A stretch of DNA of 64,000 nucleotides, from contig CP084166.1 of NCBI GenBank assembly GCA_021513695.1, positions 1,376,001 through 1,440,000 of the forward strand, in the 5' to 3' direction. This document shows, piece after piece, positions 78 to 62,930 of this stretch. A program made the translations under genes and the position numbers. Source of the DNA: Candidatus Heimdallarchaeum aukensis (GTDB lineage Archaea; Asgardarchaeota; Heimdallarchaeia; Heimdallarchaeales; Heimdallarchaeaceae). The stretch's first letter is position 1; the number at the start of each line of letters is the position of its first letter. The notes beneath the pieces are model-generated. The model had not been told where the DNA came from, ran no database searches, and saw nothing but the letters and a program-made list of their open reading frames with translations.

Positions 78-893
78 TTGTTATTTGGCTTTTTAACGGC
101 ATTATATAATTACACTTTTGCTATAGGACAAGAAAAAATATTAAACATAGATTTAGAGCAATATAAGATTATTTTTCAAGAATTAAAAGATAACAAATTA
201 TTAGTAGTCATTACAGATTCTCTTATCGACTATGATGATGAAAAGAATCTTATCGAAAAAATCAAACTTAGGTATGAAGTTCTTACTTATGATAAAGATA
301 TAAGCGAAATTGATTCTTTACTTACAGTAGAAGAAGGAATAATTCCTTTAGAACTTATAGCTGAAATAAGAAGTAAGGGGACTATGTACGCGAAGCAAGA
401 AGAAAAAAGCAAAGCAGAAATCCAAGCAGAGATAGATATTCCAAAAATAAAATCAGAAAAATTCTTTTTCCATATCATTTTGAATGAAGGAATTATCGAT
501 TCGGATAAAGAAGTAAATATCAGAAAAACTTTATCTAATTTTTTTCTAGGTTACCGAAAATTGGTTTTATGTATATTTGCGTATAATATTAGAGGAAAAC
601 TTTGTATTTTTTCCTTTGGTAGAAGTTCTCAAGCAGATAATCATAGAGAGTTCAGCACGCACATCATTAACGAAACTTTAGCCAAAGCCGTGAAGAAAGA
701 ATGTAGTATCATAAATCAGATTGAATATGGTGGAAAGAAATTTTGGGCAAATATATTTCTTGATCAGAAGAAACATTCGAGCTATGTTTTTCTCTCAACT
801 TCTAAAAATGAATTAGTAAGTTTAGAAGTTCATATAAAAAGAATATCTACTTTTATTTATAAATTGTTTCAAAAAAAGTTAGTAGATGCTTGA
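78..893 (+). CDS. Hypothetical protein. The open frame continues upstream to the window edge, so the gene is probably 5'-truncated by the window. The first in-frame start inside the window is TTG at 78.
   Basis: A 271-aa ORF. The same frame stays open from position 3 to 77 (..AIHILDDGINVHSEQLHSISNIDNV..). I recognise no motif. Confidence 0.4.
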   Translation: MLFGFLTALYNYTFAIGQEKILNIDLEQYKIIFQELKDNKLLVVITDSLIDYDDEKNLIEKIKLRYEVLTYDKDISEIDSLLTVEEGIIPLELIAEIRSKGTMYAKQEEKSKAEIQAEIDIPKIKSEKFFFHIILNEGIIDSDKEVNIRKTLSNFFLGYRKLVLCIFAYNIRGKLCIFSFGRSSQADNHREFSTHIINETLAKAVKKECSIINQIEYGGKKFWANIFLDQKKHSSYVFLSTSKNELVSLEVHIKRISTFIYKLFQKKLVDA

Positions 894-4044: not shown

Positions 4045-5712
4045 ATGAGTTACGTAGAAAAAGCATTATATCAATATATAAAGGGAATATTTGTAGATGG
4101 TTTTAAAGTTCTGTTTAGTAAGAAATATGTTGTATATACAAGTATATTCTTAGCTTCTATCATAAGTACGACAGTTTTGTATATTCTCCAAGCATTCCAA
4201 ATAAATACTGCAGTTGACCTAGGTAATTTGGCTTCATTATTCTTGAAGATTGAATTAGCACTTGCTTTAACATATTTTCTAAGTGGTTTAATCTTAGCTA
4301 GGTGTCCAATTTACTTTTGGATAATTCCAGTGGTAATTTTGACAGGTGGTCTAGTTGTGGTATTTTATTTTCTTCCGGACATATTAAATATTATTCCTGA
4401 CTTAAGCCCTTATTTTGCAGTCATTTTTTATTTGTCTTGGATTGTACTATCAGTCTTTCTTTCATTCTCCCTGTCAAGAAACTTTTTTGGAAATAAATAT
4501 TTGGGAAGCGCTCTATTCTTAGGTAAAAAGAAAAACGAAGGAGGAATCCTATTTTCTGGTATTGTTTTTGTCGTGGCATTAGTTAATCTTGCTTTATCTG
4601 TTTACTTACTCCGCTTAAGTATAATGAGTCTTTTTACCCCAAATAAACAGTTCTTTCTCCTCGTAGCTTCAGTCGCTTCAATAATATCTACAACAATCAT
4701 TTTTGCTATTATCTTTAAATTGGGTACCTATGATGATGTTTTTTATACAATTATTGCATTTTATTATGTTTTTACTAGTTACATTCTCTGGAAATTAGCT
4801 TATTACTATTTTACATCATCAGATATTGGAGAAATTACTGTTTCAAATGTTGACGTTATAATAAGTGTATTTACTAGTTTGTTCTGGGCTATCTATTCAA
4901 TGAGTAGTTATGGAAGAAAAATTATACAGATTAAAGCTTTAGATGAAGAACTAGAAAAAACAGAGAAAATCATTAAACAAGAAACATTAGAGGAACAAAA
5001 AGAGTTTGAGAGAATTAAAAGTATGAAGATTCCCCAAATTAAAATCACAGACGATGACTCATGGCTAGAAAAAAGGAAGAAAATCCAACAGATGAAAAAA
5101 GCAGAAAAAGAAAAATTGAAGGCTTTAAAGAAATTCAATAAGAAAAGAGAAAAAAGAAAGAAACTTGCTCAAGTAAGATTAGAAGAAGCTAAAAAAGAAA
5201 CAGAAGAACGTATTGCGAAATCTAAAGAAAAGTGGTTTATTTTTAGAATCCCAGACCTTTTAGGACCAGACGGTGTATTATTAACTATAATGGGAATGAT
5301 TCTCGGATATCATGTTACCAATATCCAATTTCTTTCTCAAGAAGATTTATTTAGTTCAATTTATTACTTAAGCTCTGACAGATTGTTTGGTTTAAGAGAT
5401 AAGTTTGCCATTGTATCAATAATGGTTATTATTGTCATATTTTTAATAAGCTACGAAACATCAGAAAAATTCAGAAAATATGCCTCACCAGAGCTGTACA
5501 GGTTAGAGATCTTACCTTCTTTTGATGAACTGATGGAACTTATCGAAAAAGTGAGAACTGGAGAAGTTTCATGGCAATCAATAGCAAAAGACATAATTCT
5601 ATCAGGGGCTAAGGCGGCAGTTGGAGCAGCAGCCACAAAGGCCTTTATAACTCCTAGCAAAACAATTGCTCGTAAGTTTAAGAAGTTGATTTCGAGGGAT
5701 GAAGAAGGATAA
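4045..5712 (+). CDS. Polytopic membrane protein with a Lys/Glu-rich coiled-coil segment
   Basis: 555 aa. Several hydrophobic helices sit in the N-terminal 300 aa. A charged coiled-coil region follows (KEKLKALKKFNKKREKRKK), then another TM segment. No recognisable catalytic motif. Confidence 0.45.
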   Translation: MSYVEKALYQYIKGIFVDGFKVLFSKKYVVYTSIFLASIISTTVLYILQAFQINTAVDLGNLASLFLKIELALALTYFLSGLILARCPIYFWIIPVVILTGGLVVVFYFLPDILNIIPDLSPYFAVIFYLSWIVLSVFLSFSLSRNFFGNKYLGSALFLGKKKNEGGILFSGIVFVVALVNLALSVYLLRLSIMSLFTPNKQFFLLVASVASIISTTIIFAIIFKLGTYDDVFYTIIAFYYVFTSYILWKLAYYYFTSSDIGEITVSNVDVIISVFTSLFWAIYSMSSYGRKIIQIKALDEELEKTEKIIKQETLEEQKEFERIKSMKIPQIKITDDDSWLEKRKKIQQMKKAEKEKLKALKKFNKKREKRKKLAQVRLEEAKKETEERIAKSKEKWFIFRIPDLLGPDGVLLTIMGMILGYHVTNIQFLSQEDLFSSIYYLSSDRLFGLRDKFAIVSIMVIIVIFLISYETSEKFRKYASPELYRLEILPSFDELMELIEKVRTGEVSWQSIAKDIILSGAKAAVGAAATKAFITPSKTIARKFKKLISRDEEG

Positions 5713-6655: not shown

Positions 6656-9484
6656 GTGATTGCAATCAAAAAAATTTCTTGTACTATTATTCTTGTTTTA
6701 TTATTAAGTTCAGAGGTATATGGGACAATATATAACAATCAAGCAGAACAAGAAGAAAATAAAGAAAAAATGGATTTTACTAATCTTAAAAACATATTTA
6801 AAGAAAAGCAATTGTTAGAAGAATTCAATAAAGCACCAAGAAATCAAGATTTCAGGTTATTTATCAAACCAAGAAATTATGATTCAAGAATAATTTTACT
6901 TGATAAAGGTAGAAGAGCAAATCCAATTTCAATAGTTAATGGACTTTTTGCAACATATACTAAAGCAGAATTATTAAATTTAATTAATAGAGGTTTAATA
7001 TTTTCTGTCTGGAATAATAGTCAGATCATGATAGCAGATTCTGAAATAAATGTATCATCCTCACTTGTTCAAAACACTGCTAACTTCACAGAAATGATAA
7101 ATACAACAACATTATGGAAAAATAATATTAAAGGAGATAATGTCACAGTAGCTATTCTTGACACGGGGATATTGAAAAATCACCCTGCATTAAACACAAC
7201 ACAAGATGGAAAAAATAGAATTATCGCAACAAGGAATTTTTTTGATGAAGATTCGTATCCAACTGACAACAATGGACATGGTTCAGCATTAGCAGGAATT
7301 ATTGGGAGTAATGGTCTTTTTGGCTATCCTATAGGCGTTTCTCCCAATTGTAATTTCATAATAGGTAAAATCTTGACTAACGAAGGTCAAGGTACATTAG
7401 AAACTTTGCTTTCTGGGATGGATTGGGCAATTAGCCAAGGAGCGGACATTATCAACCTCTCAATAGGAAAAAAAGTTGAAAGCCTTCATGCTCCAGAAAT
7501 AGAAGCAGTAAATAATGCAGTAAATAAAGGTGTAATTGTAGTTAGCGCTGTTGGTAATTCAAGAGGTAAATTAGAATTTGGATATAACTCTAAATACACA
7601 GTTCTTAGCCCTGGAATAGCTAGCAATGTAATAACTGTTGGTGCAATTGATACAAATGAAGTTTTATACGAATTTAGTAGTGGAGGGCCAGTGACTATCA
7701 ATTTTAACGAAACTGAAGGAAAATATCTCTATGATTTCCAAGATGTGGATTACTGGATAAAACCTGATATTGTAGCTCCTGGAGTTAAAATTAATACAAC
7801 AACAAATTCTTTAGATTCAACAAAAATAGTAACAGGTACTAGTTATTCCACTGCTGTAGTATCAGGATTATGTGCGCTAGTTTTATCAAAAAACAAGGAA
7901 TATAAGCCATCAATAATAAAATCAGCAATTTTGAATAGCGCAACGAAATTAGAAAACAACCTAATATTTAGCTCTAATTCAACTATTAAAATAATCCCTG
8001 ATATTTTTTATCAAGGTGCAGGATTAGTTAATGCGGGTCATACTTTAGATGAATTAGAAAACATTCAAGATTTCACAATATGGCCTGCAGATTTTTCATT
8101 TTTAGATAAAAAATTATTCATTAACGAAAAAAAGCAGTTCTATATTAGTTTATTCATAAATAGACCCATTGAACATCTAACAATAAACATTGAGGGAGAT
8201 ATAAATAAAGGATTAACAATAAGCAATTTAGACACTTTAAACTCTAGTTCTATAGGACAATATAACCTTGCTTTTTTGATTGATGGTGAGAAATTTTCTT
8301 CAGGAATTCATAAAGGGGAAATAACCTTTGTCTCATCCGTATTAAACATAACCTTATCTCTACAAATAAATATCATTAATGCAAAAGGAAAGGTTTTAGT
8401 AGACTTTTTTGAGAAAAGTCCTATTGATTATTATTCATTAAAAGGGACTTTAACTAGCCTAGTAAGGACTTTACGAAAATTACAATTAGTTACTTCTTTT
8501 CTTAGAAGAGATATTGAGCAAAGAACATTATCTAGTCTAAACCTTTTAGACTATGATTTAATTATCTTAATCAATCCTAATGGATCTACAGAATTAAGAG
8601 ATTATTACTCAAATAGTGATTTAGAAGCTCTAAAAGACTATGTGCTACCTAGAGGAAATTATAAAGGAGGAAGTCTTTTAATTTTACCTTCACAATCAAG
8701 TGACTTCAATTTTATAGCTAACTTAACAAGTTTATTCAAAATCTCTCTTAGTCAAACAGAAATCGAAGAAGAATTTTTTGAATTTGGTTTCACGACTGGT
8801 CAGTTATTTTCATTTCCCAATGAAATAAGTGAGTTTTATATTCCAAAACCATTCATTGTAAAAGGAGAAAATAGTTCAGTAAAAAATTATGAAAACCGCT
8901 TTGCTTATGTAGATAACAGATATGGTGGAGGTTCACTCGTTTTTGTAGCTAATAACGTTGATATGTTTCTCTCATCTCCATACTTATACTCAACTACTAG
9001 TGAAAAATATATTACAACTCGATTTTCTTCAAAATACGGAAACAATACAAAACTCCTTGAAAACATAGTTTATACATGTAGACCTAATTACATACTGACA
9101 TCCGTTGAAACGGATAAAAAGGAATTCATAAAGAATGAAAAAATAACGTTAAAAATTTCTCTTAAAAATTATCACAAATATATTTCAGGATGGACTTTTA
9201 CTATTACTTTGGAAAATGAACAGACTTACATGGTTCCTTCATTCCAATACGTTGATCTTGAAAATGGTTCATATTTCTTGATTATAGATATAGAAAAGAA
9301 TAATATTAAACCTGGTCATTACTCTTTAGTTGTAAGGTCTTTTGCAGGAAATGAAAAAATTGAGGTAAACATTATAACTAACTTCTCTCTTACTCCAAGA
9401 TTCGTTGAAATTCCTCTCATTGTATGCGTTATTATAATTATATATACCCAAACCAAAAAAAGAAGAGTGAAGATTAAGAAATAG
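6656..9484 (+). CDS. Secreted or surface-anchored subtilisin-like serine protease (peptidase S8) with a long C-terminal extension and a C-terminal TM anchor
   Basis: 942 aa. It has an N-terminal signal peptide (ILVLLLSSEVYG). The catalytic triad motifs are VAILDTGI (Asp), HGSALAGIIGS (His) and GTSYSTAVVSGL (Ser). Many N-x-S/T sequons are present. A C-terminal hydrophobic helix is followed by KKRRVKIKK. Confidence 0.85.
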   Translation: MIAIKKISCTIILVLLLSSEVYGTIYNNQAEQEENKEKMDFTNLKNIFKEKQLLEEFNKAPRNQDFRLFIKPRNYDSRIILLDKGRRANPISIVNGLFATYTKAELLNLINRGLIFSVWNNSQIMIADSEINVSSSLVQNTANFTEMINTTTLWKNNIKGDNVTVAILDTGILKNHPALNTTQDGKNRIIATRNFFDEDSYPTDNNGHGSALAGIIGSNGLFGYPIGVSPNCNFIIGKILTNEGQGTLETLLSGMDWAISQGADIINLSIGKKVESLHAPEIEAVNNAVNKGVIVVSAVGNSRGKLEFGYNSKYTVLSPGIASNVITVGAIDTNEVLYEFSSGGPVTINFNETEGKYLYDFQDVDYWIKPDIVAPGVKINTTTNSLDSTKIVTGTSYSTAVVSGLCALVLSKNKEYKPSIIKSAILNSATKLENNLIFSSNSTIKIIPDIFYQGAGLVNAGHTLDELENIQDFTIWPADFSFLDKKLFINEKKQFYISLFINRPIEHLTINIEGDINKGLTISNLDTLNSSSIGQYNLAFLIDGEKFSSGIHKGEITFVSSVLNITLSLQINIINAKGKVLVDFFEKSPIDYYSLKGTLTSLVRTLRKLQLVTSFLRRDIEQRTLSSLNLLDYDLIILINPNGSTELRDYYSNSDLEALKDYVLPRGNYKGGSLLILPSQSSDFNFIANLTSLFKISLSQTEIEEEFFEFGFTTGQLFSFPNEISEFYIPKPFIVKGENSSVKNYENRFAYVDNRYGGGSLVFVANNVDMFLSSPYLYSTTSEKYITTRFSSKYGNNTKLLENIVYTCRPNYILTSVETDKKEFIKNEKITLKISLKNYHKYISGWTFTITLENEQTYMVPSFQYVDLENGSYFLIIDIEKNNIKPGHYSLVVRSFAGNEKIEVNIITNFSLTPRFVEIPLIVCVIIIIYTQTKKRRVKIKK

Positions 9485-9854
9485 CGTTTCTTATATCAGA
9501 AGCATATCTTGCTAGAACTTGCATGGATAATGCAAGACTGTAGATTTCTCTTGAAGCTGCTAAAGTTATTACTTCTCCAGTATTTTGGAGTATGACAAAA
9601 CCCTCTCTTCCTTTTATAATAACTTGGTCTAATTCTCCATACTTTAATTGGGTGACAGTTTGCATTCCTGCAGCATTCAAAGCAGAAGCTAAAGCTGCCA
9701 TAATAACTGAATCAGTTCCTTGTTCTGCAAAAAAAGCTAATTCTTGTCCTTCTGAGGTTACTACTGCTATAGCACCAAGATCACATTTCTTTGTTATCTG
9801 TTTAAGTATCTGAATTACTGCTTTTTTTTGTTCGGGTGTTAAATCTGTAATCAT
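9474..9854 (-). CDS. Roadblock/LC7 (MglB-like) domain protein
   Basis: 126 aa. The pattern 'LGAIAVVTSEGQELAFFAE...' shows Robl-like alternation and has the length typical of the family. Confidence 0.72.
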   Translation of the reverse strand: MITDLTPEQKKAVIQILKQITKKCDLGAIAVVTSEGQELAFFAEQGTDSVIMAALASALNAAGMQTVTQLKYGELDQVIIKGREGFVILQNTGEVITLAASREIYSLALSMQVLARYASDIRNAIS

Positions 9855-12901: not shown

Positions 12902-13360
12902 ATGAAAGCAATTTTTGAAATTAAAAATAAATCAGAGAAACAAGTTCTTTTGGATTTAGAAGAGCTTTCTGAAAAATATAACAGTTCTGTAAAAAAGGAA
13001 GATCAAGGAGAAGGACACTTTATTCTTACAGAATCAAAACTTCAAATTGTAGAAAGAGTTGAAGGTGATCAAATAATAGTTCAAGTCTGGGGAGCTTCAG
13101 AAGGAGACATTCAAGAGCTTTCAAATTACTGGGGACAACCAAAAAAGCTGATAAAAGAAAAACCATCACCTAACGATTTAGCTAAAGAGATAATATATAT
13201 TCCAAATATAACTGAAATGAAGAAAAATGAGTTGTTAGAATTGTTAGAAATAAGTGAGAAAGACTTGGATAAATATAAAAGATTAATTGACAGATTAGCA
13301 CAAAGAAAAAACGTAAGCGATGAATTAAAGAAAGCAAATGAGATACTAAAAAAATTCTAA
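12902..13360 (+). CDS. Hypothetical protein
   Basis: 152-aa ORF that is charged and helical, with no recognisable motif. Confidence 0.35.
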   Translation: MKAIFEIKNKSEKQVLLDLEELSEKYNSSVKKEDQGEGHFILTESKLQIVERVEGDQIIVQVWGASEGDIQELSNYWGQPKKLIKEKPSPNDLAKEIIYIPNITEMKKNELLELLEISEKDLDKYKRLIDRLAQRKNVSDELKKANEILKKF

Positions 13361-13423
13361 TATTTGGTGTAAATTCATTCAAAATTAGTAGATAAGCTAG
13401 ACTTATTTATAGGAAAAACTTAA

Positions 13424-15493
13424 TTGTCTATTATGGGCAAGAAAATATTTTCAATAATAATTGTTCTTTTACTGGTAATACCTTTTTCCAGTTTAAGTAA
13501 TATTTCAAATTCTCAAGCAGAAAATAAAACAGTAAAAAGTTATTTTGAGCAAGCAATAACAACTACTACATTTAAAGGAGAAACAAATATTACAACTTTA
13601 ATAGGACCTGATTATGCCTATGATGTTATTATTAACTCATTAAAACGAGCTCAAACTTCATTTTATTTAGAAGTTTATACTTTATCCAGCGAACCACTTG
13701 TAAATGAGCTCATTAGAGCAAAAGAAAGAGGAGTAGAAGTAATTGTTTTACTTTCTCACGATAGAGTAAGCGGATATGAAGATGAGTATACTAAAGAAGC
13801 TGCTTACAGATTAGATAATGCAGGAATTGACGTATTATGGACAAGCAGCGAATTCCGTTTTACTCATGCCAAATTCTGGATAGTTGACAGTGAAACAGTC
13901 TTTGTTTATTCTGGAAATTGGGCTCCATCTAGTATCCCACAATATCCTTCAGCTTATAAAAATAGAGAAATGGGTTTTGCAATTACTGATACTGAAATTG
14001 CAGCCTACTATGAAGATGTATTTTTCGATGATATGGCTGCATCAACACCCTATGATCCTTCTATTGGTCATACAGGAAATCTTCAAGCAAATTCAACTAG
14101 CGGATCATATGAACATCCTTTTAATTCTGCCATTTTTATCGAATATGCAGAAGTTACACCTATTTTCTCTCCTGATAACAGTTATGCGCTTCTCTCATCA
14201 CTAATCAAATCAGCCAATGTATCAATTGATATAGAAATGCAATATATTCTATTTGACTGTGAGCTTCTACAAGACATTATAGATGCATCACAAAGAGGTG
14301 TCGCAATAAGAGTAATAATTAACAAACCAGACTCATCAGGAGAAAATGTTACAGAAACTTTGCTTACTAATGGCATTCAAGTCAAATTTTTCAAAGGATT
14401 GAGTCATAACCATAACAAATATGTTAGCGTCGATGGAGAGATTGTACAAATTTCAAGTATTAATTGGTCTAACAACTCACTTACCAATAATAGAGAAGCA
14501 GGAGCTATAATCAAAAATTCAAATGTAGCAGAATATTTCAAGCAAATTTTTGATTATGATTGGAATAAAGGTGAAACACCAGAAGGTTTTGCAGTTCCAG
14601 TTGCATTAATTGATCCTCTCCCAGGAGGGATAGTTAAAGGTACATATGATTTCAAAGCTTCTTTCTCAGTTTATAATTATTCTTCCGCAGAACTTCAGAT
14701 TGATGGTTCTACAGCTCATTCTTGGACGAATCCCGAAAACATTGAAACAGTATCAATAGATACATCATCTTATTCAGACGGAATTCACACTGTAAAGATT
14801 ATAGCTACAAAAGATGACGATAGTACAGTTGAAATAGAAGAGAAAATCAATATTATCAACGTAGACGAATGGTTATTATTAATTAGCGAAGTAAGATATG
14901 ATGCAGTTTCTGAACCAGGTGGAGAATTTGTAGAGTTATACAATGCCTTTGATTTTTCTCTATACTTGCAAAATTGGAAATTTACAGATAATGAAGGAGA
15001 ATATAAAATGTCTGAAGGCACTATGATTACTTCTGGACAAGTTTTAATTTTCGCAAGTGATAGCAGTGCTTTTGTTTCCGAAATGGCAGACTTAGGAATT
15101 TCTGGTGTATCTGCAGATTTTGGGCTAGGAGATATATCTCTTGCTAATACAGGAGATGAAATTTTACTAGTGTCTCCAGATGGTGAGGTAAGAGATGCTG
15201 TTTCATGGGGATCAGGAAGTGCTTCTGGAGTCATTGCATGGAGTGGTTCAACAGGAGAGGATAAAACTCTTCAGAGAGTACCAGCCAATGAAGATACTGA
15301 TGATTGTACAAATGATTTTCAGGCTAAAGCCCCTACTCCAGGAGAAGTAGATTTAGATTCAATAAATACAGAAACAGGAGCAAACACAGACGACACAGAG
15401 CCAGAATTTACAAGTTTCAATTTCCTATACGTCATTTTTGGTATAATTTCTCTAACTGCTTTAAGTAGTATTTTTAAAAGAATAAGAAAATAG
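13424..15493 (+). CDS. Secreted phospholipase D-family (HKD) phosphodiesterase/nuclease fused to a lamin-tail domain (LTD), with a C-terminal TM anchor
   Basis: 689 aa. It has a signal peptide (IIVLLLVIPFSSLS). There are two HKD motifs, 'FTHAKFWIVDSE' and 'SHNHNKYVSVDGE'. The LTD signature is 'LLISEVRYDAVSEPGGEFVELYNAFDFSLYLQNWKFTDNEGEY'. A C-terminal hydrophobic segment is followed by KRIRK. Confidence 0.75.
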   Translation: MSIMGKKIFSIIIVLLLVIPFSSLSNISNSQAENKTVKSYFEQAITTTTFKGETNITTLIGPDYAYDVIINSLKRAQTSFYLEVYTLSSEPLVNELIRAKERGVEVIVLLSHDRVSGYEDEYTKEAAYRLDNAGIDVLWTSSEFRFTHAKFWIVDSETVFVYSGNWAPSSIPQYPSAYKNREMGFAITDTEIAAYYEDVFFDDMAASTPYDPSIGHTGNLQANSTSGSYEHPFNSAIFIEYAEVTPIFSPDNSYALLSSLIKSANVSIDIEMQYILFDCELLQDIIDASQRGVAIRVIINKPDSSGENVTETLLTNGIQVKFFKGLSHNHNKYVSVDGEIVQISSINWSNNSLTNNREAGAIIKNSNVAEYFKQIFDYDWNKGETPEGFAVPVALIDPLPGGIVKGTYDFKASFSVYNYSSAELQIDGSTAHSWTNPENIETVSIDTSSYSDGIHTVKIIATKDDDSTVEIEEKINIINVDEWLLLISEVRYDAVSEPGGEFVELYNAFDFSLYLQNWKFTDNEGEYKMSEGTMITSGQVLIFASDSSAFVSEMADLGISGVSADFGLGDISLANTGDEILLVSPDGEVRDAVSWGSGSASGVIAWSGSTGEDKTLQRVPANEDTDDCTNDFQAKAPTPGEVDLDSINTETGANTDDTEPEFTSFNFLYVIFGIISLTALSSIFKRIRK

Positions 15494-15599
15494 CATCTTT
15501 TTCTTATTTTTTCTATTTTTAGGCACTTTATTATTAGGTAAAAACTATTGATAAAACTGATACTGAGTTTAAATAGTAAAATACCATAATGTAAATGAT

Positions 15600-46193: not shown

Positions 46194-48203
46194 ATGTTTT
46201 TTACGGATAAACAGCAACGAATGGAGAAAAGAAAATTGCGTGCACGTAGATTAAACAAAATACTGTTGATTACATTATTATTAATTACCACTTTTTCGGT
46301 AAGCGTATTAGGAAGAGCATATTTTTCTTCAGTTAGTGATTTTGGAAAGACAGACCTAAGTTATTCGAAAAATAATATCGTAGCTTTTGACACCAATGAA
46401 CCCATAATTGACGGGGATTTGGAATCTTATGAAGGAGAATGGGCTAATGCTACAGTTTATAGTAATATAATAGATGGGATAAATTATACTATTACCTTAA
46501 AAGCCAATGAGACTCATCTTTTCTTTGGTATAAGTTATGAGACTAATTTGTTTGTCTCACTCACAGAAACTAACGCAAGCATTCCTCACACTTGGTATGC
46601 AATTGTCTTTGACAGTAACTTTGACAAAGAATTTGGAACAGAACTTGTTCCTGAAGATACTATTTTGTTTAACTATCAAGAAAAAGATGCAACTGACGCT
46701 ACTTTGAATGGTACAGAAACTAATTCATTGGCTTTGGATGAAGATTTAGGAGGAGAAGATAACACAATAGGTGCTATTCAAACAGATCTTTTTGTTGAAG
46801 AATACACTGTAACAATAGAAATCGCTAAAGAATTAAACTCAGGAGATAAGGAAGGGAATGATATAGCCCTAAACCCAAGCGATGCTATTCTATTTGCTTT
46901 AATTCCATTTGCTAACCATACGGATGTATTCAATAATACCGAGGTTCCTTCATTAGAATGGAATACTTTAAGATTAGAACCCACACAAGAATTCTACACA
47001 TATATAGAAAATACCGAAGATCTGTCAGTAGTAACCTACGTTTCAGATTCAGTAAGAACAAAGAGAGTAGAGTTTAATTCAATAGGAAATATGTTAGAAG
47101 CCTATCAATTAAATTCTCAATTAGCAAATAAGGATAATTTTGAGATTACAACTGAAAATCTCAACGATGTTGATCTATTTATTATGGCAGGAAATCAAAA
47201 ATCCCTAACTTCTAGCCAAATATCTGTTTTACGTTCATATTTGACAAATGGAGGAAGTATACTCCTTATTGCAGATGAAGTGAAAAATGAAAGTTCAATT
47301 AATGAATTCTTACGAATGTTCAATATGGAACTATACAATTCAACACTCTACTCAAACAATACTGCCATCAATGAATCTCTAACTTTTGATCAAACAACAC
47401 TTGCACAACTACAATATTTACAAGAAGATAGTGCTTTTACAGAAACAGAATTCAGTAATATCTTTTACACAGGTACAGCAATAAAAAACATTTCTGCCTA
47501 TGGAGAAACCATTTTATTTGGACAAGATGCTGACTTATATCCGATCCTTTCAAAAGAAGGAGAATTCTTCATCAATTTAGGTGAAAAAACAGGATACAAT
47601 AGCACAGAAGATATTGCGATAAACAATGTGACTTTGCAAACTGCTTTAGAACTAAAATATGGAGGAAAAATGATTGTTTCTGCCTCAGCTGACATGTATA
47701 ATTCATCAAATCTTGTATTTGGTTCAAATAAGATGTTACTGTTGAAAGAGATACAATGGTTACTTAACTTCAGATTCAGAATAAGCTATGAAAACTTTAA
47801 CGTCCCTCAGACAAAAGTTAAAGAGGGAAATCCAATAGAAATGAACATTAGCGTTACAGGAGATAACGATACAGTTCTAGCAAATGTTAAAGTACAAGGA
47901 AGAGTGCTTGTTCTTAAATCAGTTGTTTCTTCTGTTGAACTTAATGCTTCAGAAAACAAAATCGATTTCTATGGACAAATTGTTCCTGAAACTAAAGCTT
48001 CATGGGTTGACATTGAGATACTGATGCACAAAAGAGGATATGGATATAACTACACTGAACTAGTAGAAGTTTTAATTGAAAAACAAATAGAAATTCCTAT
48101 AGCGGTAGATTACGTGTCTTTAATTGTTTTTATAGCTTCCATTGGATTAGCTATAATAGGAATGATAACTATAAGAAGACACAAAATTCAAAAAGAAGAA
48201 TAA
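46194..48203 (+). CDS. Surface or secreted protein with an N-terminal signal/anchor, an N-glycosylation-sequon-rich ectodomain and a C-terminal TM anchor
   Basis: 669 aa. The N-terminus is 'LLITLLLITTFSVSVLG'. More than 20 N-x-S/T sequons are present. The C-terminus is 'VSLIVFIASIGLAIIGMITIRRHK'. Confidence 0.45.
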   Translation: MFFTDKQQRMEKRKLRARRLNKILLITLLLITTFSVSVLGRAYFSSVSDFGKTDLSYSKNNIVAFDTNEPIIDGDLESYEGEWANATVYSNIIDGINYTITLKANETHLFFGISYETNLFVSLTETNASIPHTWYAIVFDSNFDKEFGTELVPEDTILFNYQEKDATDATLNGTETNSLALDEDLGGEDNTIGAIQTDLFVEEYTVTIEIAKELNSGDKEGNDIALNPSDAILFALIPFANHTDVFNNTEVPSLEWNTLRLEPTQEFYTYIENTEDLSVVTYVSDSVRTKRVEFNSIGNMLEAYQLNSQLANKDNFEITTENLNDVDLFIMAGNQKSLTSSQISVLRSYLTNGGSILLIADEVKNESSINEFLRMFNMELYNSTLYSNNTAINESLTFDQTTLAQLQYLQEDSAFTETEFSNIFYTGTAIKNISAYGETILFGQDADLYPILSKEGEFFINLGEKTGYNSTEDIAINNVTLQTALELKYGGKMIVSASADMYNSSNLVFGSNKMLLLKEIQWLLNFRFRISYENFNVPQTKVKEGNPIEMNISVTGDNDTVLANVKVQGRVLVLKSVVSSVELNASENKIDFYGQIVPETKASWVDIEILMHKRGYGYNYTELVEVLIEKQIEIPIAVDYVSLIVFIASIGLAIIGMITIRRHKIQKEE

Positions 48204-49027: not shown

Positions 49028-50002
49028 TTGGAATTGGTAGAGAGAAAAATGTTCAACCAAACAAAAAATGAAAGAGGTTTTTTGAAAAATTTCCTTAAGT
49101 ACAAGAAAATATTCTTTTCGCAAATTTTTCATATTTACTCTTATGGATTGTTTTTAGCGATGTATTTATGGTTCGTTTTTTTTGATATTTTAGCTCTACA
49201 CATTATAATTTTTAGTTTTATAGTAGGATTTTTAGCAATAATAGCAGATACTGTAATTTATTACACACTAAAGAAACTTTACTACGATACATTTGATTTC
49301 GGAAAAGTAATTGTAACTTTTTTAATTTTTTACTTATTCCAAATGTCGTATTTTTTAAAAGCTTGGTTTAATATTGAACCACAGCAATTAATGTTAGGTT
49401 ATTTAATAGGATATTCTCAATTAAAGATGACAGGAGTATTGGCTACAATTCTTAAGTCTGTAGGGTCTATTGCTTTATTGTTATCTTTCATTTCTTGTTT
49501 AAATTATGCTAGATCTGGTTATAGTAAATTAATCCCAGGATGGAATAAAAAAGTCAGTTCAGGAGAATTCGTGTTTTTATCCTTTATTGTTGCCACTATC
49601 AATATAATAGCTGCCTTGCAGATGGCTAGTTATATAAAAGAGAGAATTGTTAATGTTTATATTTTACTAACATTTTTCACATTAGCGAGTTTGTTAATAA
49701 TTCCAACCTATAAATCAAAAATTAAAATTTTCTCTGAAGAGTCCCCAGAAACTAAAAAAATGTTGATGATGATCAAAAATAATAAAACATCAATTATAAT
49801 TGATGCATTGTTTCTTTTTCTTAGCGATGCTATTCTTTTCTTTAGTTTCACAGTAATTGGGCCTTGGGAGATATTTTCTATTTTTCTATCAGCTTTCGTT
49901 ATAATAGGAAATAGATACAGAGCTATCGGTTCTGTTCAGAGAGAAAGAAAAGAAGAAGAACTAGATTTGATATCACAAAAAATTTTTAACAATTTTAATT
50001 AA
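49028..50002 (+). CDS. Polytopic membrane protein, hypothetical
   Basis: 324 aa with at least 7 hydrophobic helices and no motif. Confidence 0.4.
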   Translation: MELVERKMFNQTKNERGFLKNFLKYKKIFFSQIFHIYSYGLFLAMYLWFVFFDILALHIIIFSFIVGFLAIIADTVIYYTLKKLYYDTFDFGKVIVTFLIFYLFQMSYFLKAWFNIEPQQLMLGYLIGYSQLKMTGVLATILKSVGSIALLLSFISCLNYARSGYSKLIPGWNKKVSSGEFVFLSFIVATINIIAALQMASYIKERIVNVYILLTFFTLASLLIIPTYKSKIKIFSEESPETKKMLMMIKNNKTSIIIDALFLFLSDAILFFSFTVIGPWEIFSIFLSAFVIIGNRYRAIGSVQRERKEEELDLISQKIFNNFN

Positions 50003-61184: not shown

Positions 61185-62930
61185 TTAATTTTCAAAAACC
61201 GAATGCATGTCTGAAATATCGTCTTCTGGTGTTTCTGCAGTGGGGTGTAGAAACACTTCTCCATCTAATATCGTAAAGGGAATCCTCCTTTTATCGATCC
61301 ATGGTGCAATTTCTCTAAATTCTTTAAAGAGATCATTACTTACAATCATTGCTGTTTCCTCTTCTGCTATTCTAAGAATAAATTTATCTCCGTCAACTCT
61401 CGCAGGTAGCATCTTTATAGCTCCTTCTTTCACTAGTTGATCCAACCTTCTTTGATTATCAATTTGATACCTAAGTGCAGCATCTGCAACCGTAATTATT
61501 TTCTTAAAGTTTGACCGACTAAGTTTATTGATCATTGCTTCAATGTTAGCTAACTTCGGATGACCAGCAGCATCTTTTTCTTCCCAAGCAACATTGCTTC
61601 CATCAACTATGACTACATCATAAGGATAAGTTGTTTCTGGAAATATGCGTTCTTGCTCACCTTTAGTTATCTTTACTAATCCTTTAATGATGTCTCTTGA
61701 GAAATAACCTATTCCTAGAAGTACTGTTATTAAAAGAATGATAATTGTAATATTTTTATCAAATGGATTTAACGGTTCGTCATTAGATATAATCTGAATA
61801 TGAAATACACCACTAAAATAAAAACTTGTAAACCAATAAATATCAGGTTGAATTTCCCAAGCTATTTGAATCGAAAGGGTGATCGTGGTATTGCCAGCTT
61901 CTATGGGTTTATCCTTTAAGATTATATGATGCCCTGAAAAGCTTGGAGATATAGCAAATATTTCTCCATTAACCTCTGAAAAAGCTATTAGAGGACAAGT
62001 GATTTCATGTTCAATATATACAACATCATCCTCAAAATTTGCTATGTTATAAGTGATTGAATAGTCTTTATTTAGTGAAGCATTCACGGAAAAATGAACA
62101 TTACTAATTGAAATATTAGGATAACAGATTATATACAAAGGCTCACTTAATACAATAACAGGATTATCTGGATCATCTAGATTTGTAAATGAAACCTGAT
62201 ATGAATGTTTTTGGTATAAAGGCTCATTTGTAAAAAACCTTATTGTTCCTTTGTAGCTTTCTCCACTATTTAACATTAGATTCAAATATGGAAGATAGAT
62301 AATGGGACTAGCTTCTGTCCCTTGCCGATTAACCAAGGCTGAGATAGTTACATTAGTTACAGCTGTACCCCCAACATTTACCAACTGGAAGTCTACTTCA
62401 GTAGTTGAATTACGTTTGAGGATTATTTTATTATTAACAAATGTCATTTCTATTTGCCCACTAGGGAGAACCTCGAGGGTAAAAATAGCAGTTTGATAAG
62501 TGGTTATGACATTTGTTCCATTAACAAAACTTTCGACTGAATAGTTTCCTGCTGGCTGGCTGTAAAAATCTTTTTTGTTGATTTTTACTACATAATCAGT
62601 TGAAGAATTACTAACTATATGCTTGTTTTCAATGATGTTTGCAGTTTCATAAGAGATGTTATAAAAAATAGTAGCATCACCATCAATAGGACTACCATTT
62701 AACCAAGACAAATGGAAAAATAAAATTAAATCATTTATTCCGCGTTTAATTACAGAAGAATTCAAAGATAAAGTAAAATTCACTTCTGATTTCTCTGAAA
62801 AATTATAATAATTCGAAACTGGTTCTTGTGAAACAATTACTTCAGAATTTGACATTGGAGAACTTATTAAGAAACTTGAGAACATGAAGAATGTGAGGAT
62901 AGATAGCGTAATTACTAGCTTTTTTTTCAT
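61185..62930 (-). CDS. Single-pass membrane protein: signal peptide, large extracellular domain, TM helix and a cytoplasmic Zc3h12a-type NYN ribonuclease domain
   Basis: 581 aa. The N-terminus is 'LVITLSILTFFMFSSFLISS' and the TM is 'ITIIILLITVLLGIGYF'. The C-terminus 'VVIVDGSNVAWEE...IITVADAALR...AMIVSNDLF' matches the NYN/Zc3h12a motifs (vviDGsNva ... ivSND). Confidence 0.65.
   Translation of the reverse strand: MKKKLVITLSILTFFMFSSFLISSPMSNSEVIVSQEPVSNYYNFSEKSEVNFTLSLNSSVIKRGINDLILFFHLSWLNGSPIDGDATIFYNISYETANIIENKHIVSNSSTDYVVKINKKDFYSQPAGNYSVESFVNGTNVITTYQTAIFTLEVLPSGQIEMTFVNNKIILKRNSTTEVDFQLVNVGGTAVTNVTISALVNRQGTEASPIIYLPYLNLMLNSGESYKGTIRFFTNEPLYQKHSYQVSFTNLDDPDNPVIVLSEPLYIICYPNISISNVHFSVNASLNKDYSITYNIANFEDDVVYIEHEITCPLIAFSEVNGEIFAISPSFSGHHIILKDKPIEAGNTTITLSIQIAWEIQPDIYWFTSFYFSGVFHIQIISNDEPLNPFDKNITIIILLITVLLGIGYFSRDIIKGLVKITKGEQERIFPETTYPYDVVIVDGSNVAWEEKDAAGHPKLANIEAMINKLSRSNFKKIITVADAALRYQIDNQRRLDQLVKEGAIKMLPARVDGDKFILRIAEEETAMIVSNDLFKEFREIAPWIDKRRIPFTILDGEVFLHPTAETPEDDISDMHSVFEN

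Follow-up and report, generated by a model that had tools for sequence, protein, structure and literature searches.

A gene in the 64,000-nucleotide stretch of Candidatus Heimdallarchaeum aukensis DNA analyzed here (contig CP084166.1; below, the window) codes for a protein, PLD-LTD, which sequence and structural model together support as a secreted, C-terminally anchored PLD-family enzyme with two HKD motifs, fused to a genuine lamin tail domain (LTD). It may be seen as a tethered HKD phosphodiesterase of the cell surface, whose most likely role, to which about an even chance can be given, would be the cutting of extracellular DNA or RNA for the scavenging of nucleotides and phosphate. The original prediction, made from the DNA letters, had named a signal peptide, two HKD motifs, an LTD and a C-terminal TM segment, and all of these are present, far beyond chance, by Pfam, sequence and model alike. 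It had also proposed a surface enzyme processing DNA or phospholipid: the secreted, anchored combination of two HKD motifs with an LTD bears this out, while model scores and Foldseek matches, being alike for both classes, do not establish a nuclease over a lipase.

Gene boundaries and transcription signals

The probable true start of the gene is the ATG at 13433 (MGKKIF...) rather than the TTG at 13424; it is favored because the start of the ortholog P0001 (90% identity) lies at the equivalent position and because a TTTATA hexamer stands about 25 nt upstream (Table 1). This hexamer would provide the gene with its own promoter and a leader that is short or absent, and, judging from the letters on either side, the gene appears to have both promoter-like and terminator-like signals of its own.

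Table 1. Features of the PLD-LTD locus (nucleotide positions are those of the window; residues are counted from TTG 13424)
Feature	Residues	Nucleotides	Strand	Description and basis
Partner gene		12902..13360	+	152 aa, without signal peptide; Heimdall-only, no known family; directly upstream of PLD-LTD
TTTATA		13406..13411	+	Archaeal TATA-box-like; ~25 nt 5' of ATG 13433; read from sequence
PLD-LTD gene	689 aa from TTG	13424..15493	+	ORF list; stop TAG 15491-15493
Signal peptide	1-32	13424..13519	+	KK n-region, hydrophobic core IFSIIIVLLLVIPF, cleavage-like site SQA/E; sequence, model
PLD N-lobe	44-210	13553..14053	+	Pfam PLDc_2 and PLDc
HKD motif 1	H148-K150-D155	13865-13888	+	HAKFWIVD; within PLD N-lobe
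PLD C-lobe	236-388	14129..14587	+	Pfam PLDc_2 at 258-380
HKD motif 2	H330-K332-D337	14411-14434	+	HNKYVSVD; within PLD C-lobe
Ig-like beta-sandwich spacer	389-480	14588..14863	+	Seven strands between 393 and 477, pLDDT mostly >90
LTD	481-642	14864..15349	+	PF00932; net charge -23
Disordered linker	643-666	15350..15421	+	Thr/Asp-rich, ending ...TEPEFTSFN; pLDDT <50 for residues 648-666
C-terminal TM helix and basic tail	667-689	15422..15490	+	Tail KRIRK; helix 667-688 in model
T-rich tract		15494..15520	+	Putative, archaeal terminator-like; abuts stop codon; read from sequence

Domain architecture

The AlphaFold model of the protein (pLDDT 85.5) confidently lays out, in order, a signal-peptide helix, two lobes, an Ig-like domain, the LTD, a disordered linker and a TM helix. 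The motifs with their downstream GSxN and scores above the Pfam gathering cut-offs place the catalytic module in the PLD (HKD) superfamily: PLDc_2 matches it twice (E 3e-50, 169.9 bits vs a cut-off of 27), and PLDc reaches 28.7 bits against 21.9. The modeled fold is the bilobal alpha/beta fold of PLD enzymes, in which both HKD motifs are predicted to make one active site. The two lobes share 28% identity, and across 41 orthologs the HKD, GSxN and NRE residues are all invariant, i.e., H148, K150, D155, N165, N180, R181 and E182 in the N-lobe and H330, K332, D337, N347, N356, R357 and E358 in the C-lobe. Both motifs are found in 88 of the 91 family matches.

The lamin tail domain is assigned by a PF00932 match at residues 485-596 (E 9.8e-14, 52.1 bits vs a cut-off of 34.3), such that both domain models proposed as a check on the original prediction, PLDc_2 and PF00932, score over their cut-offs. 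In the model the LTD region (485-635) is beta-rich, with pLDDT mostly >90. The Ig-like domain before it matches no Pfam or NCBIfam family, and two long paralogs, P0002 and P0003, carry the pair of Ig-like domain and LTD in duplicate. Neither the Ig-like domain nor the 24-residue disordered linker had featured in the original prediction.

The ectodomain is very acidic by its sequence-derived charge (pI 4.2, net charge -57), with the LTD contributing -23 at a pI of 4.05. An inter-domain disulfide between the conserved C279 and C628 was considered and found unsupported, the three losses among the 41 orthologs being independent. The density of N-glycosylation sequons is above that of the cytoplasmic neighbors and near the compositional expectation; it is also high in the cytoplasmic 152-aa protein, and it is not counted here as evidence.

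Export and the C-terminal tail

In the model, the signal-peptide region forms a helix (residues 6-22) followed by a disordered stretch, and cleavage would probably occur at SQA/E. An N-terminal hydrophobic segment is present in 76 of the 91 family members and a TM segment with a basic tail in 83; in the wider set of 131 relatives, 86 have a signal-peptide-like N-terminus and 70 the TM-plus-basic tail.

The C-terminus of PLD-LTD is tripartite by sequence and model, with ...TEPEF TSFN leading into FLYVIFGIISLTALSSIF, which is followed by KRIRK, the hydrophobic helix occupying residues 667-685. Thus, the membrane anchor of the original prediction holds as to the TM helix and basic tail, while the plain label of an anchor does not, and the element is better described as a tripartite tail resembling a C-terminal sorting signal. 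Such a tail is common to PLD-LTD and the Heimdall-, Loki- and PEF-CTERM surface proteins, but the window tail TEPEF-TSFN-TM-KRIRK matches none of the three curated models. Among 48 ortholog tails compared with these models at E<=0.01, ten matched Heimdall-CTERM (NF045529), eight Loki-CTERM (NF033507) and three PEF-CTERM (TIGR03024), and one (P0087) clears the cut-offs of both Loki-CTERM (25.0 vs 19.9) and Heimdall-CTERM (24.5 vs 24). A PEF-CTERM or PGF-CTERM label for the window tail was rejected, given that no model passed and that matches are confined to some of the orthologs. The same type of tail is seen on two other secreted proteins of the window. Pfam models matched no exosortase or archaeosortase among the polytopic membrane ORFs tested, and no sortase-like gene was identified in the window; we know of no processing enzyme for Asgard C-terminal sorting signals.

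Relationships of the catalytic module

By sequence and by modeled fold, PLD-LTD is equally near to the nucleases and the lipases of the PLD family. The best NCBIfam model is a NucT one (NF010490, 73.6 bits vs a cut-off of 211; the other NucT models give 19-39 bits vs 225-351), and over the 41 orthologs the models for NucT (best 1.9e-20), DrmC (9.3e-20) and cardiolipin synthase (5.2e-18) score about alike and far below their cut-offs. By none of the curated cut-offs applied to its sequence does PLD-LTD count as cardiolipin synthase, NucT, DrmC or lamin relative. The best PDB matches in sequence and profile searches are Zucchini (7.6e-13), Nuc (7e-12), the poxvirus nicking-joining enzyme, the PLD3/4 exonucleases and Serratia PLD, the profile match to the last (7e0m, 4e-12) being on par with Nuc and Zucchini. 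Foldseek returned 173 PDB matches at E<=0.001, of which the best 50 are all PLD-family enzymes; at the top, phospholipases (Serratia 7e0m, 3.3e-19, and Streptomyces PLD) are level with PLD3/4, their E-values being indistinguishable. It is by the compactness of the module (TMt) alone that PLD-LTD groups with F13, PLD3/4 and Serratia PLD 7e0m, all compact two-HKD enzymes (0.60-0.74), as against Streptomyces PLD and human PLD1/2 (0.41-0.51).

The known systems resemble PLD-LTD in different respects. In sequence, the C-lobe is matched best by Nuc/NucT and Zucchini (Nuc 1byr, Zucchini 4ggj and the NucT model), which share with it the signature HxKx4Dx6GSxN...NxE in alignments, and Nuc is likewise exported; yet these are homodimers, each chain of ~155-200 aa carrying a single HKD, whereas PLD-LTD carries both lobes in one chain together with an Ig-like domain, an LTD and an anchor. 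Membership in Nuc/NucT was rejected on this ground and on the scores below cut-off. PLD3/PLD4, the poxvirus K4 nicking-joining enzyme and F13 are compact single-chain two-HKD modules of similar size, but they are only ~16-18% identical to PLD-LTD, none has an LTD, and the anchor of PLD3/4 is N-terminal (type II). PLD3/4 act as 5'-3' exonucleases and are glycosylated proteins tethered to the membrane on its lumenal, topologically extracellular side. The Serratia plymuthica (7e0m) and Streptomyces PLDs are secreted two-HKD enzymes with the best Foldseek E-values, but they are without LTD, Ig-like domain or anchor, and the Streptomyces enzyme has extra loops (TMt ~0.5); a lipid substrate is demonstrated for these PLDs and not for PLD-LTD.

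Phyletic distribution and gene neighborhood

Homologs of PLD-LTD number 204 at E<=1e-5, the best, with 90% identity, coming from a Heimdallarchaeaceae MAG, and the family is conserved across Heimdallarchaeota, in about 40 genomes at species level. In DNA, the window and Ca. Heimdallarchaeum endolithica are 86% identical, and a search for the exact sequence of PLD-LTD retrieved no record. LTD fusions, N- or C-terminal, occur in 29 of the 69 nearest representatives of the PLD clade, in Asgard and Thermoplasmata archaea. Accessory domains of glycan type (CARDB, PKD, CBM_56, ChitinaseA_N and Glucodextran_B) are also found in relatives. A Thorarchaeota relative (P0253), 36% identical in the PLD module, combines a signal peptide, a PnrA/Bmp nucleoside-binding domain (E 1.3e-45), the PLD module and an anchor; no ABC transporter genes adjoin its locus, and this fusion is limited to a single lineage. 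A eukaryotic origin was entertained for the large four-HKD relatives and dismissed, the named ones being Thermoplasmata archaea. The domain combination is widespread in Asgard and Thermoplasmata archaea and the genes are already annotated generically. The JGI names of homologs read 'phosphatidylserine/phosphatidylglycerophosphate/cardiolipin synthase-like enzyme'. In the literature, nothing was found on proteins combining PLD and LTD or on LTDs in Asgard archaea.

As had been predicted, the gene lies upstream of replication and repair genes, with DinB/Dpo4, PriL and PriS downstream and an XPD helicase upstream in the window. The same-strand order XPD, 152-aa gene, PLD-LTD, DinB, PriL and PriS is kept in the clade whose members are 54% identical or more; it is lost in 10 of 34 loci, where the pair of the small gene and the PLD gene alone is retained. 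The small gene stands directly upstream of the PLD gene in all 34. TATA-like boxes can be read in the sequence 5' of both PLD-LTD and dinB. The tie to the replication and repair genes is positional only, and, with synteny lost in these loci and with the apparent promoter- and terminator-like signals of the gene itself, a functional meaning of the adjacency is not supported. No conserved nucleoside, phosphate or lipid genes were seen around the Heimdall or Hodarchaeales loci or the Thorarchaeota fusion locus, nor do the Heimdall genes have conserved neighbors of nucleotide salvage.

The 152-aa protein consists of an N-terminal alpha/beta domain of TBP-like fold and a helical part at its C-terminus, and it would be a functional partner of PLD-LTD, with a regulator or a cytoplasmic inhibitor or chaperone as candidates. 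One could go further and imagine a Heimdallarchaeia-specific pair of the enzyme/antidote or enzyme/regulator kind, in which the tethered phosphodiesterase attacks the DNA or membranes of neighboring bacteria, in contact-dependent interaction or predation, while the TBP-like-fold partner neutralizes or controls it in the producer, but this must be rated a long shot.

Functional alternatives

A surface phospholipase D or transphosphatidylase, which would act on foreign membranes (of bacterial partners or prey, vesicles or detrital lipids) or, in its own cell, on the outer membrane leaflet, with the LTD targeting membranes, is possible if rather doubtful. The top Foldseek matches are experimentally verified phospholipases, the 7e0m profile match is as good as those of Nuc and Zucchini, an acidic surface would be no hindrance to lipid head-group chemistry, and a role in directing proteins to membranes was originally proposed for prokaryotic LTDs, in the statement of Mans et al. 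2004 that PMC6085458 quotes. Set against these are the missing extra loops of classical PLDs, as reflected in the TMt values above, a catalytic domain held ~300 residues away from the anchor, LTD partners that the literature consulted documents as nucleases, and the PnrA fusion, which points to nucleic-acid products; at such a distance from the anchor, a substrate that is soluble or foreign would fit better than the lipids of its own membrane. Another extracellular phosphodiester, such as glycerophosphodiesters, teichoic-acid-like or phosphoglycan polymers or polyphosphate-like chains, with the Ig-like domain and LTD binding glycans, is unlikely: many phosphoryl-transfer reactions use the PLD fold, relatives carry glycan-type domains, and the many conserved acidic residues of the LTD might fit Ca-dependent glycan binding, but there is no positive evidence for a specific substrate, and the weak matches to the polyphosphate kinase C-terminal domain reach 18.4 bits against a cut-off of 25.7. 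A cardiolipin or phospholipid synthase of membrane lipid biosynthesis is what the JGI names and a TIGR04265 match (1.1e-16) would suggest, and a grouping of this kind, along with a missing LTD match, had been raised with the original prediction as grounds for abandoning it. The PF00932 match is significant. The synthase models stay far below their cut-offs (TIGR04265 60.9 bits vs 290; ClsB 34.2 vs 281); in place of an N-terminal pair of TM helices there are a signal peptide, predicted to be cleavable, and an anchor at the C-terminus, the catalytic domain would lie outside the cell and far from the membrane, and partner domains such as LTD, Ig, PKD and CARDB are those usual in surface proteins, all of which makes a synthase highly improbable.

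That PLD-LTD belongs to an XPD-DinB/Dpo4-PriL-PriS repair cluster, or is a DrmC-like component of a DISARM-type defense, draws on the conserved same-strand gene order and on PADLOC DrmC models matching up to 1.3e-23, and it too has very little probability: PLD-LTD is secreted while its neighbors are cytoplasmic, the synteny is missing in the 10 loci mentioned, TATA-like boxes precede both PLD-LTD and dinB with a T-rich tract after the PLD-LTD stop, the NCBIfam DrmC model NF038319 gives 64 bits against a cut-off of 133, and the loci examined have no DrmA, DrmB or methyltransferase genes. An identity as DISARM DrmC was accordingly set aside, the PADLOC matches reflecting the common PLD fold in a secreted protein without DISARM neighbors. 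Few known archaea are as closely related to eukaryotes as Heimdallarchaea, and the presence of a Pfam LTD in such a host invites the idea, akin to the eukaryote-like LTD protein of the original prediction, that the domain marks a lamin-related protein bearing on the origin of the nuclear lamina. This idea is scarcely credible and the eukaryote-like label finds no support, considering that neither the single sequence nor the family profile finds a PDB lamin tail at E<=10, that the closest LTDs outside the family are Asgard fragments and then those of Chloroflexota/Anaerolineae bacteria at 30-36% identity, that the domain is predicted to be extracellular and is hydrolase-fused, as in bacterial LTDs, and that there is no coiled-coil rod.

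A proposed tethered extracellular nuclease and its bacterial analogs

The context favors an extracellular nuclease, through a layout like that of ExeM, the 29 of 69 nearest relatives with an LTD and the one Thorarchaeota fusion of PnrA type, and the best PDB sequence and profile matches and the top NCBIfam model, NucT, lean the same way. The acidic ectodomain argues mildly against it, since DNA would be poorly bound in a non-specific manner if no divalent cations bridged the charges. Also against it are the confinement of the nucleoside-binding fusion to one lineage, with no ABC transporter genes beside it, the absence of conserved nucleotide-salvage neighbors around the Heimdall genes, and a window tail that passes no curated sorting-signal model. 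As a nuclease, PLD-LTD would be exported via Sec by its cleavable signal peptide and tethered on the exterior of the membrane by its C-terminal motif, TM helix and basic cluster, a tail of the type curated as Heimdall-CTERM and Loki-CTERM in related Heimdall and Loki proteins. The Ig-like domain, the LTD and the flexible linker would make up a stalk with the bilobal HKD module at its distal end, and the two lobes of this module would form one active site working by standard PLD chemistry, through a covalent phospho-histidine intermediate and independently of metals, as is established for the family. The most likely substrate would be extracellular DNA or RNA, cut for the scavenging of nucleotides and phosphate in the sediment, and the LTD would probably serve as an accessory domain binding the substrate or a surface, with nothing lamin-like about it. 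The analysis shows the architecture of domains, the conserved catalytic residues, the topology as predicted, the phyletic spread and the linkage of the two genes; the substrate, what the LTD and the partner protein do, and any tail processing are inferred.

The original prediction had pointed to bacterial LTD-nuclease fusions as extracellular nucleases, and this is documented for ExeM of Shewanella oneidensis, which can do without its LTD but degrades DNA better with it (PMC6085458); sediment bacteria that degrade DNA have likewise been reported to possess LTD nucleases (PMC8289736). Like PLD-LTD, ExeM and Xds of Vibrio cholerae combine a signal peptide, an LTD, a hydrolase of nuclease type and a tripartite C-terminal tail that retains the protein at the membrane. 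However, their catalytic domain is an EEP with OB folds in contrast to a two-HKD PLD module, the LTD of PLD-LTD lies C-terminal of the catalytic domain, unlike theirs, and their tail is GlyGly-CTERM as against the archaeal Heimdall/Loki/PEF-CTERM type in an archaeal host. Pfam finds no EEP or YhcR-like OB domains in PLD-LTD, which has a PLD catalytic module instead; it is therefore an analog of ExeM/Xds and not a member of their family.

Implications

The finding is too unsurprising to alter any view, and part of its value is corrective: database names such as 'cardiolipin synthase' are put right, and a connection of Asgard LTDs to the nuclear lamins, inviting but unsupported, is removed. It also defines a strictly linked two-gene unit, the small partner of which is without known relatives. 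In marine sediments, extracellular DNA counts among the major sources of phosphorus, nitrogen and carbon (PMC8289736). To our knowledge, the archaeal enzymes tapping it are essentially uncharacterized. If PLD-LTD is a nuclease, it would represent an archaeal solution that relies on metal-independent PLD chemistry while sharing the plan of the bacterial LTD nucleases, and a case of convergent domain recruitment in which an LTD and a C-terminal sorting signal were joined to an unrelated catalytic fold. PLD-LTD further adds a concrete, conserved cargo for the poorly understood C-terminal sorting signals of the Asgard archaea.

Gene and domain architecture

The gene PLD-LTD encodes a secreted, C-terminally tethered and catalytically intact two-HKD phosphodiesterase with immunoglobulin (Ig)-like and lamin-tail (LTD) stalk domains, which is conserved throughout Heimdallarchaeota, in strict linkage with a small cytoplasmic protein. 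What the original prediction observed of it is borne out in full: the open reading frame lies exactly where it had been placed, and its product carries both predicted HxKxxxxD motifs, in two PLDc_2 domains (Pfam, E 3e-50) with the PLDc active-site motif. The LTD is recovered by PF00932 at E 9.8e-14 (52.1 bits against a gathering score of 34.3), the N-terminus has the classical Sec layout of a signal peptide (KK, a hydrophobic core, then SQA followed by E), and a C-terminal hydrophobic transmembrane (TM) helix precedes KRIRK. Because an ATG shortly 3' of the TTG is the equivalent of the start in the 90%-identical ortholog P0001, and a TTTATA element lies about 25 nt before it, we consider this ATG the probable real start.

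AlphaFold, given 41 orthologs, models the protein with confidence (mean pLDDT 85.5) and resolves the segments listed in the table. The base composition of the gene is unremarkable, and the window has no paralog of it elsewhere. The protein has exactly two cysteines, C279 in the PLD C-lobe and C628 in the LTD, both of which occur in 38 of the 41 orthologs; an inter-domain disulfide between them is unsupported, the three losses being independent and showing no covariation.

Features discussed in the text, by nucleotide (window, unless a locus is named) or by residue of the PLD-LTD protein
Feature	Position	Strand	Remark
PLD-LTD gene	13424-15493	+	689 aa from TTG
Alternative start, ATG (MGKKIF...)	13433	+	three codons 3' of TTG
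TTTATA element	13406-13411
Upstream partner gene	12902-13360	+	152 aa
Polytopic ORF	4045-5712	+	~6 predicted TM
S8 subtilase	6656-9484	+	942 aa
ORF with Robl_LC7 ortholog	9474-9854	-
IFT52-GIFT/ABC_transp_aux-like-domain protein	46194-48203	+	669 aa
Polytopic ORF	49028-50002	+	~7 predicted TM
NYN/Zc3h12a-like RNase-domain protein	61185-62930	-	581 aa
P0253 gene (Thorarchaeota)	L009 8001-11444
Signal helix	residues 6-22		AlphaFold model
Two alpha/beta lobes	residues about 50-205 and 236-382		AlphaFold model
HKD motif HAKFWIVD	residue 148
HKD motif HNKYVSVD	residue 330
Ig-like beta-sandwich	residues 393-477		AlphaFold model; recognised by no family model
LTD	residues 485-596		PF00932
LTD	residues 485-635		AlphaFold model
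Disordered linker	residues 648-666		AlphaFold model
Terminal TM helix	residues 667-688		AlphaFold model

Distribution and conservation

At E<=1e-5 the protein has 204 homologs, and the close ones all bear the label Heimdallarchaeota, Heimdallarchaeaceae or Asgard and share the architecture, at a length of about 675 aa and 44-90% identity. A scan of species-representative genomes places the gene in about 40 Heimdallarchaeota genomes, among them that of Ca. Heimdallarchaeum endolithica PR6, which is complete (89% protein identity; 86% DNA identity with the window over 8 kb). Among the 91 closest family hits, both HKD motifs are kept in 88, the C-terminal TM-plus-basic tail in 83 and the N-terminal hydrophobic segment in 76, and in the 41-sequence alignment the catalytic-signature residues of both lobes (H, K, D, the GSxN Asn and the downstream N-R-E) are invariant. 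Judged from these sequences, PLD-LTD is in all probability an active enzyme under purifying selection and not a decayed domain.

The family also shows variation in its layout. Some Heimdall genomes have long second paralogs, P0002 (994 aa) and P0003 (1011 aa), in which the Ig-like and LTD pair is tandem-duplicated, and which share contigs with the standard-length paralogs P0055 and P0062. In Hodarchaeales-type homologs of 25-29% identity (P0092, P0094, P0097 and P0111; loci L007, L069 and L070) the order of the lobes is swapped, the first being of the PLD-LTD C-lobe type and the second of the N-lobe type, with the LTD and anchor still C-terminal, as if the lobes of a pseudo-dimeric enzyme had been permuted. 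The upstream partner is absent from these three loci, and in L007 and L069 a small ORF of about 80 aa follows the homolog.

The gene neighborhood

The predicted adjacency to replication and repair genes holds for the window itself, with XPD upstream and DinB/Dpo4, PriL and PriS downstream, but is not conserved throughout the family. Among 34 species-level loci with usable flanks, the XPD...DinB-PriL-PriS arrangement is limited to the clade with at least 54% identity and is absent in 10, where, for example, a lipoate-protein ligase gene lies upstream instead. A gene for a protein of 149-152 aa, in contrast, lies directly upstream on the same strand in 34/34 loci. These proteins are homologous at 30-40% identity, their family comprises 55 clusters restricted to Heimdallarchaeota, and in three MAGs the two locus tags are consecutive. 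It is this gene pair, and not the repair cluster, that forms the conserved functional unit. Since TATA-like boxes precede both PLD-LTD and dinB, and a T-rich tract follows the PLD-LTD stop codon, these signals suggest that PLD-LTD would be transcribed separately from the repair genes.

Two further genes of the window may be mentioned: one on the minus strand, whose ortholog in L001 and L002, two loci of 90% identity, bears the annotation Robl_LC7 (Roadblock/LC7), and another, whose product has a hydrophobic N-terminus, numerous N-x-S/T sequons and, at its C-terminus, an NYN/Zc3h12a-like RNase domain (E 9e-16), and could be a further nuclease that is exported or associated with the membrane.

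The C-terminal anchor

The tail of PLD-LTD (TEPEF-TSFN-TM-KRIRK) has a tripartite architecture, and by analogy it might be processed. NCBIfam has sorting-domain models for such tails, Heimdall-CTERM (NF045529) and Loki-CTERM (NF033507), and that of the ortholog P0087 (PSGFIPGF...RKRKK) exceeds the cut-offs of both. At E<=0.01, 10 of 48 ortholog tails match Heimdall-CTERM, eight Loki-CTERM and three PEF-CTERM; PLD-LTD's own tail passes none of the three models. The same tail type, together with a signal peptide, occurs in the S8 subtilase and the GIFT-domain protein of the window, which suggests a surface-anchoring route common to all three. No sortase-like protein was detected among the window's polytopic ORFs; the two listed in the table have no Pfam match, and nothing supports them as sorting enzymes.

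A near-identical tail of another kind, a TM helix followed by (R/H)DW(R/K)(R/K)R-(K/S/Q)W, ends nine PLD(+LTD) relatives of unrelated length (P0258, P0262, P0267, P0268, P0270, P0273, P0274, P0277 and P0299), and may represent another, unnamed C-terminal sorting signal.

The catalytic module and its substrate

Comparisons of the query and the family profile with PDB sequences returned Zucchini/MitoPLD (7.6e-13), Serratia plymuthica phospholipase D (7e0m, 4e-12; identified via PMC8004604) and the Nuc endonuclease (7e-12), as well as the poxvirus nicking-joining enzyme, the PLD3/PLD4 5'-3' exonucleases and F13. Among NCBIfam models, NucT (73.6 bits) precedes DrmC (64) and bacterial cardiolipin synthase (60.9), a near-tie repeated in all 41 orthologs; as all three scores fall three- to five-fold under the curated cut-offs, membership in these families is out. 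Foldseek E-values are equal for true phospholipases and nucleases (about 1e-17 to 1e-19), with target coverage (TMt) highest, at 0.60-0.74, for F13, 7e0m and PLD3/4, which are compact two-HKD enzymes, and lower for Streptomyces PLD (~0.5) and human PLD1/2 (~0.42). The module represents a separate clade of two-HKD PLD enzymes of compact build. As to whether it would group with cardiolipin synthases or with Nuc-like nucleases, the former grouping is not found and the latter is weakly favored; similarity by itself cannot assign the substrate.

Domain partners offer another view of this clade. Searched exhaustively with HMMER, the PLD module by itself yields 7,133 representatives at E<=1e-3 (160 at E<=1e-30). 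The 131 top hits that carry at least two HKD motifs include 86 with a signal-peptide-like N-terminus and 70 with the TM-plus-basic tail. In 69 of these, Pfam detects an LTD in 29, the other partners being CARDB, Big, PKD and similar domains of surface proteins. Among sediment archaea the PLD+LTD combination is common, its taxon-named bearers being Asgard and Thermoplasmata archaea, and several relatives have one or two LTDs on the N-terminal side of the PLD module; therefore, the combination was assembled in more than one order. In the Thorarchaeota protein P0253 a signal peptide is followed by a PnrA/Bmp-type nucleoside-binding domain (E 1.3e-45), a two-HKD PLD module of the type in PLD-LTD (36% identical), an Ig domain and an anchor. 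Such a nucleoside-receptor fusion is what one expects if the products of the enzyme are nucleotides or nucleosides, making P0253 a possible Rosetta-stone link between the clade and nucleoside uptake. The fusion is confined to a single lineage, and its locus has no ABC permease gene, only an adjoining MFS gene.

A parallel might be struck with ExeM, an extracellular nuclease of Shewanella, which carries an LTD, OB folds and an EEP nuclease domain between its signal peptide and a GlyGly-CTERM tail made up of a motif, a TM helix and a basic cluster. ExeM remains membrane-associated, and has an LTD that is dispensable yet raises DNA degradation (PMC6085458). LTD-containing nucleases have likewise been highlighted in DNA-degrading sediment bacteria (PMC8289736). 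The Heimdall protein is alike in plan, whereas its catalytic fold is different and its tail archaeal. A literature search for PLD+LTD fusions or LTDs in Asgard archaea found no paper.

A phospho-histidine, metal-free mechanism is established for the PLD superfamily, and PLD-LTD would act in this usual way, on a substrate outside the cell. The ExeM analogy, the recurrence of the LTD, the PnrA fusion and a slight sequence leaning to Nuc and Zucchini make DNA or RNA, used for nutrient scavenging, the most likely substrate, a reading to which we give about an even chance. What speaks most against simple DNA binding is acidity: the LTD (net -23, pI 4.05) is extremely acidic, as is the whole ectodomain (net -57, pI 4.2; family median -63). 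If the substrate is a nucleic acid, binding must be local, via the conserved K321, K324, R296 and K364 near the C-lobe motif, or cation-bridged.

A phospholipase or transphosphatidylase, as the match to 7e0m might indicate, is rather unlikely, and the stalk of about 300 residues would disfavor the cell's own membrane lipids; action on another phosphodiester substrate is still less probable. A cardiolipin synthase, as some members are misleadingly named, a repair or defense component, and a lamin relative are together very improbable. As to the last, the suggestion of a eukaryote-like LTD is unsupported: neither the LTD sequence nor its family profile has a lamin-tail match among PDB sequences at E<=10, and outside the family Asgard fragments have the nearest LTDs, before small LTD-only Chloroflexota/Anaerolineae proteins of 30-36% identity.

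Implications

These proteins already carry generic names, 'phospholipase D-like domain-containing protein' or 'lamin tail domain-containing protein'. New here is that the family is recognised as an analogue, with a PLD module, of the LTD nucleases of bacteria, with an Asgard-type sorting tail as a design element and an invariant partner gene, and that the lamin and repair-cluster readings are rejected.
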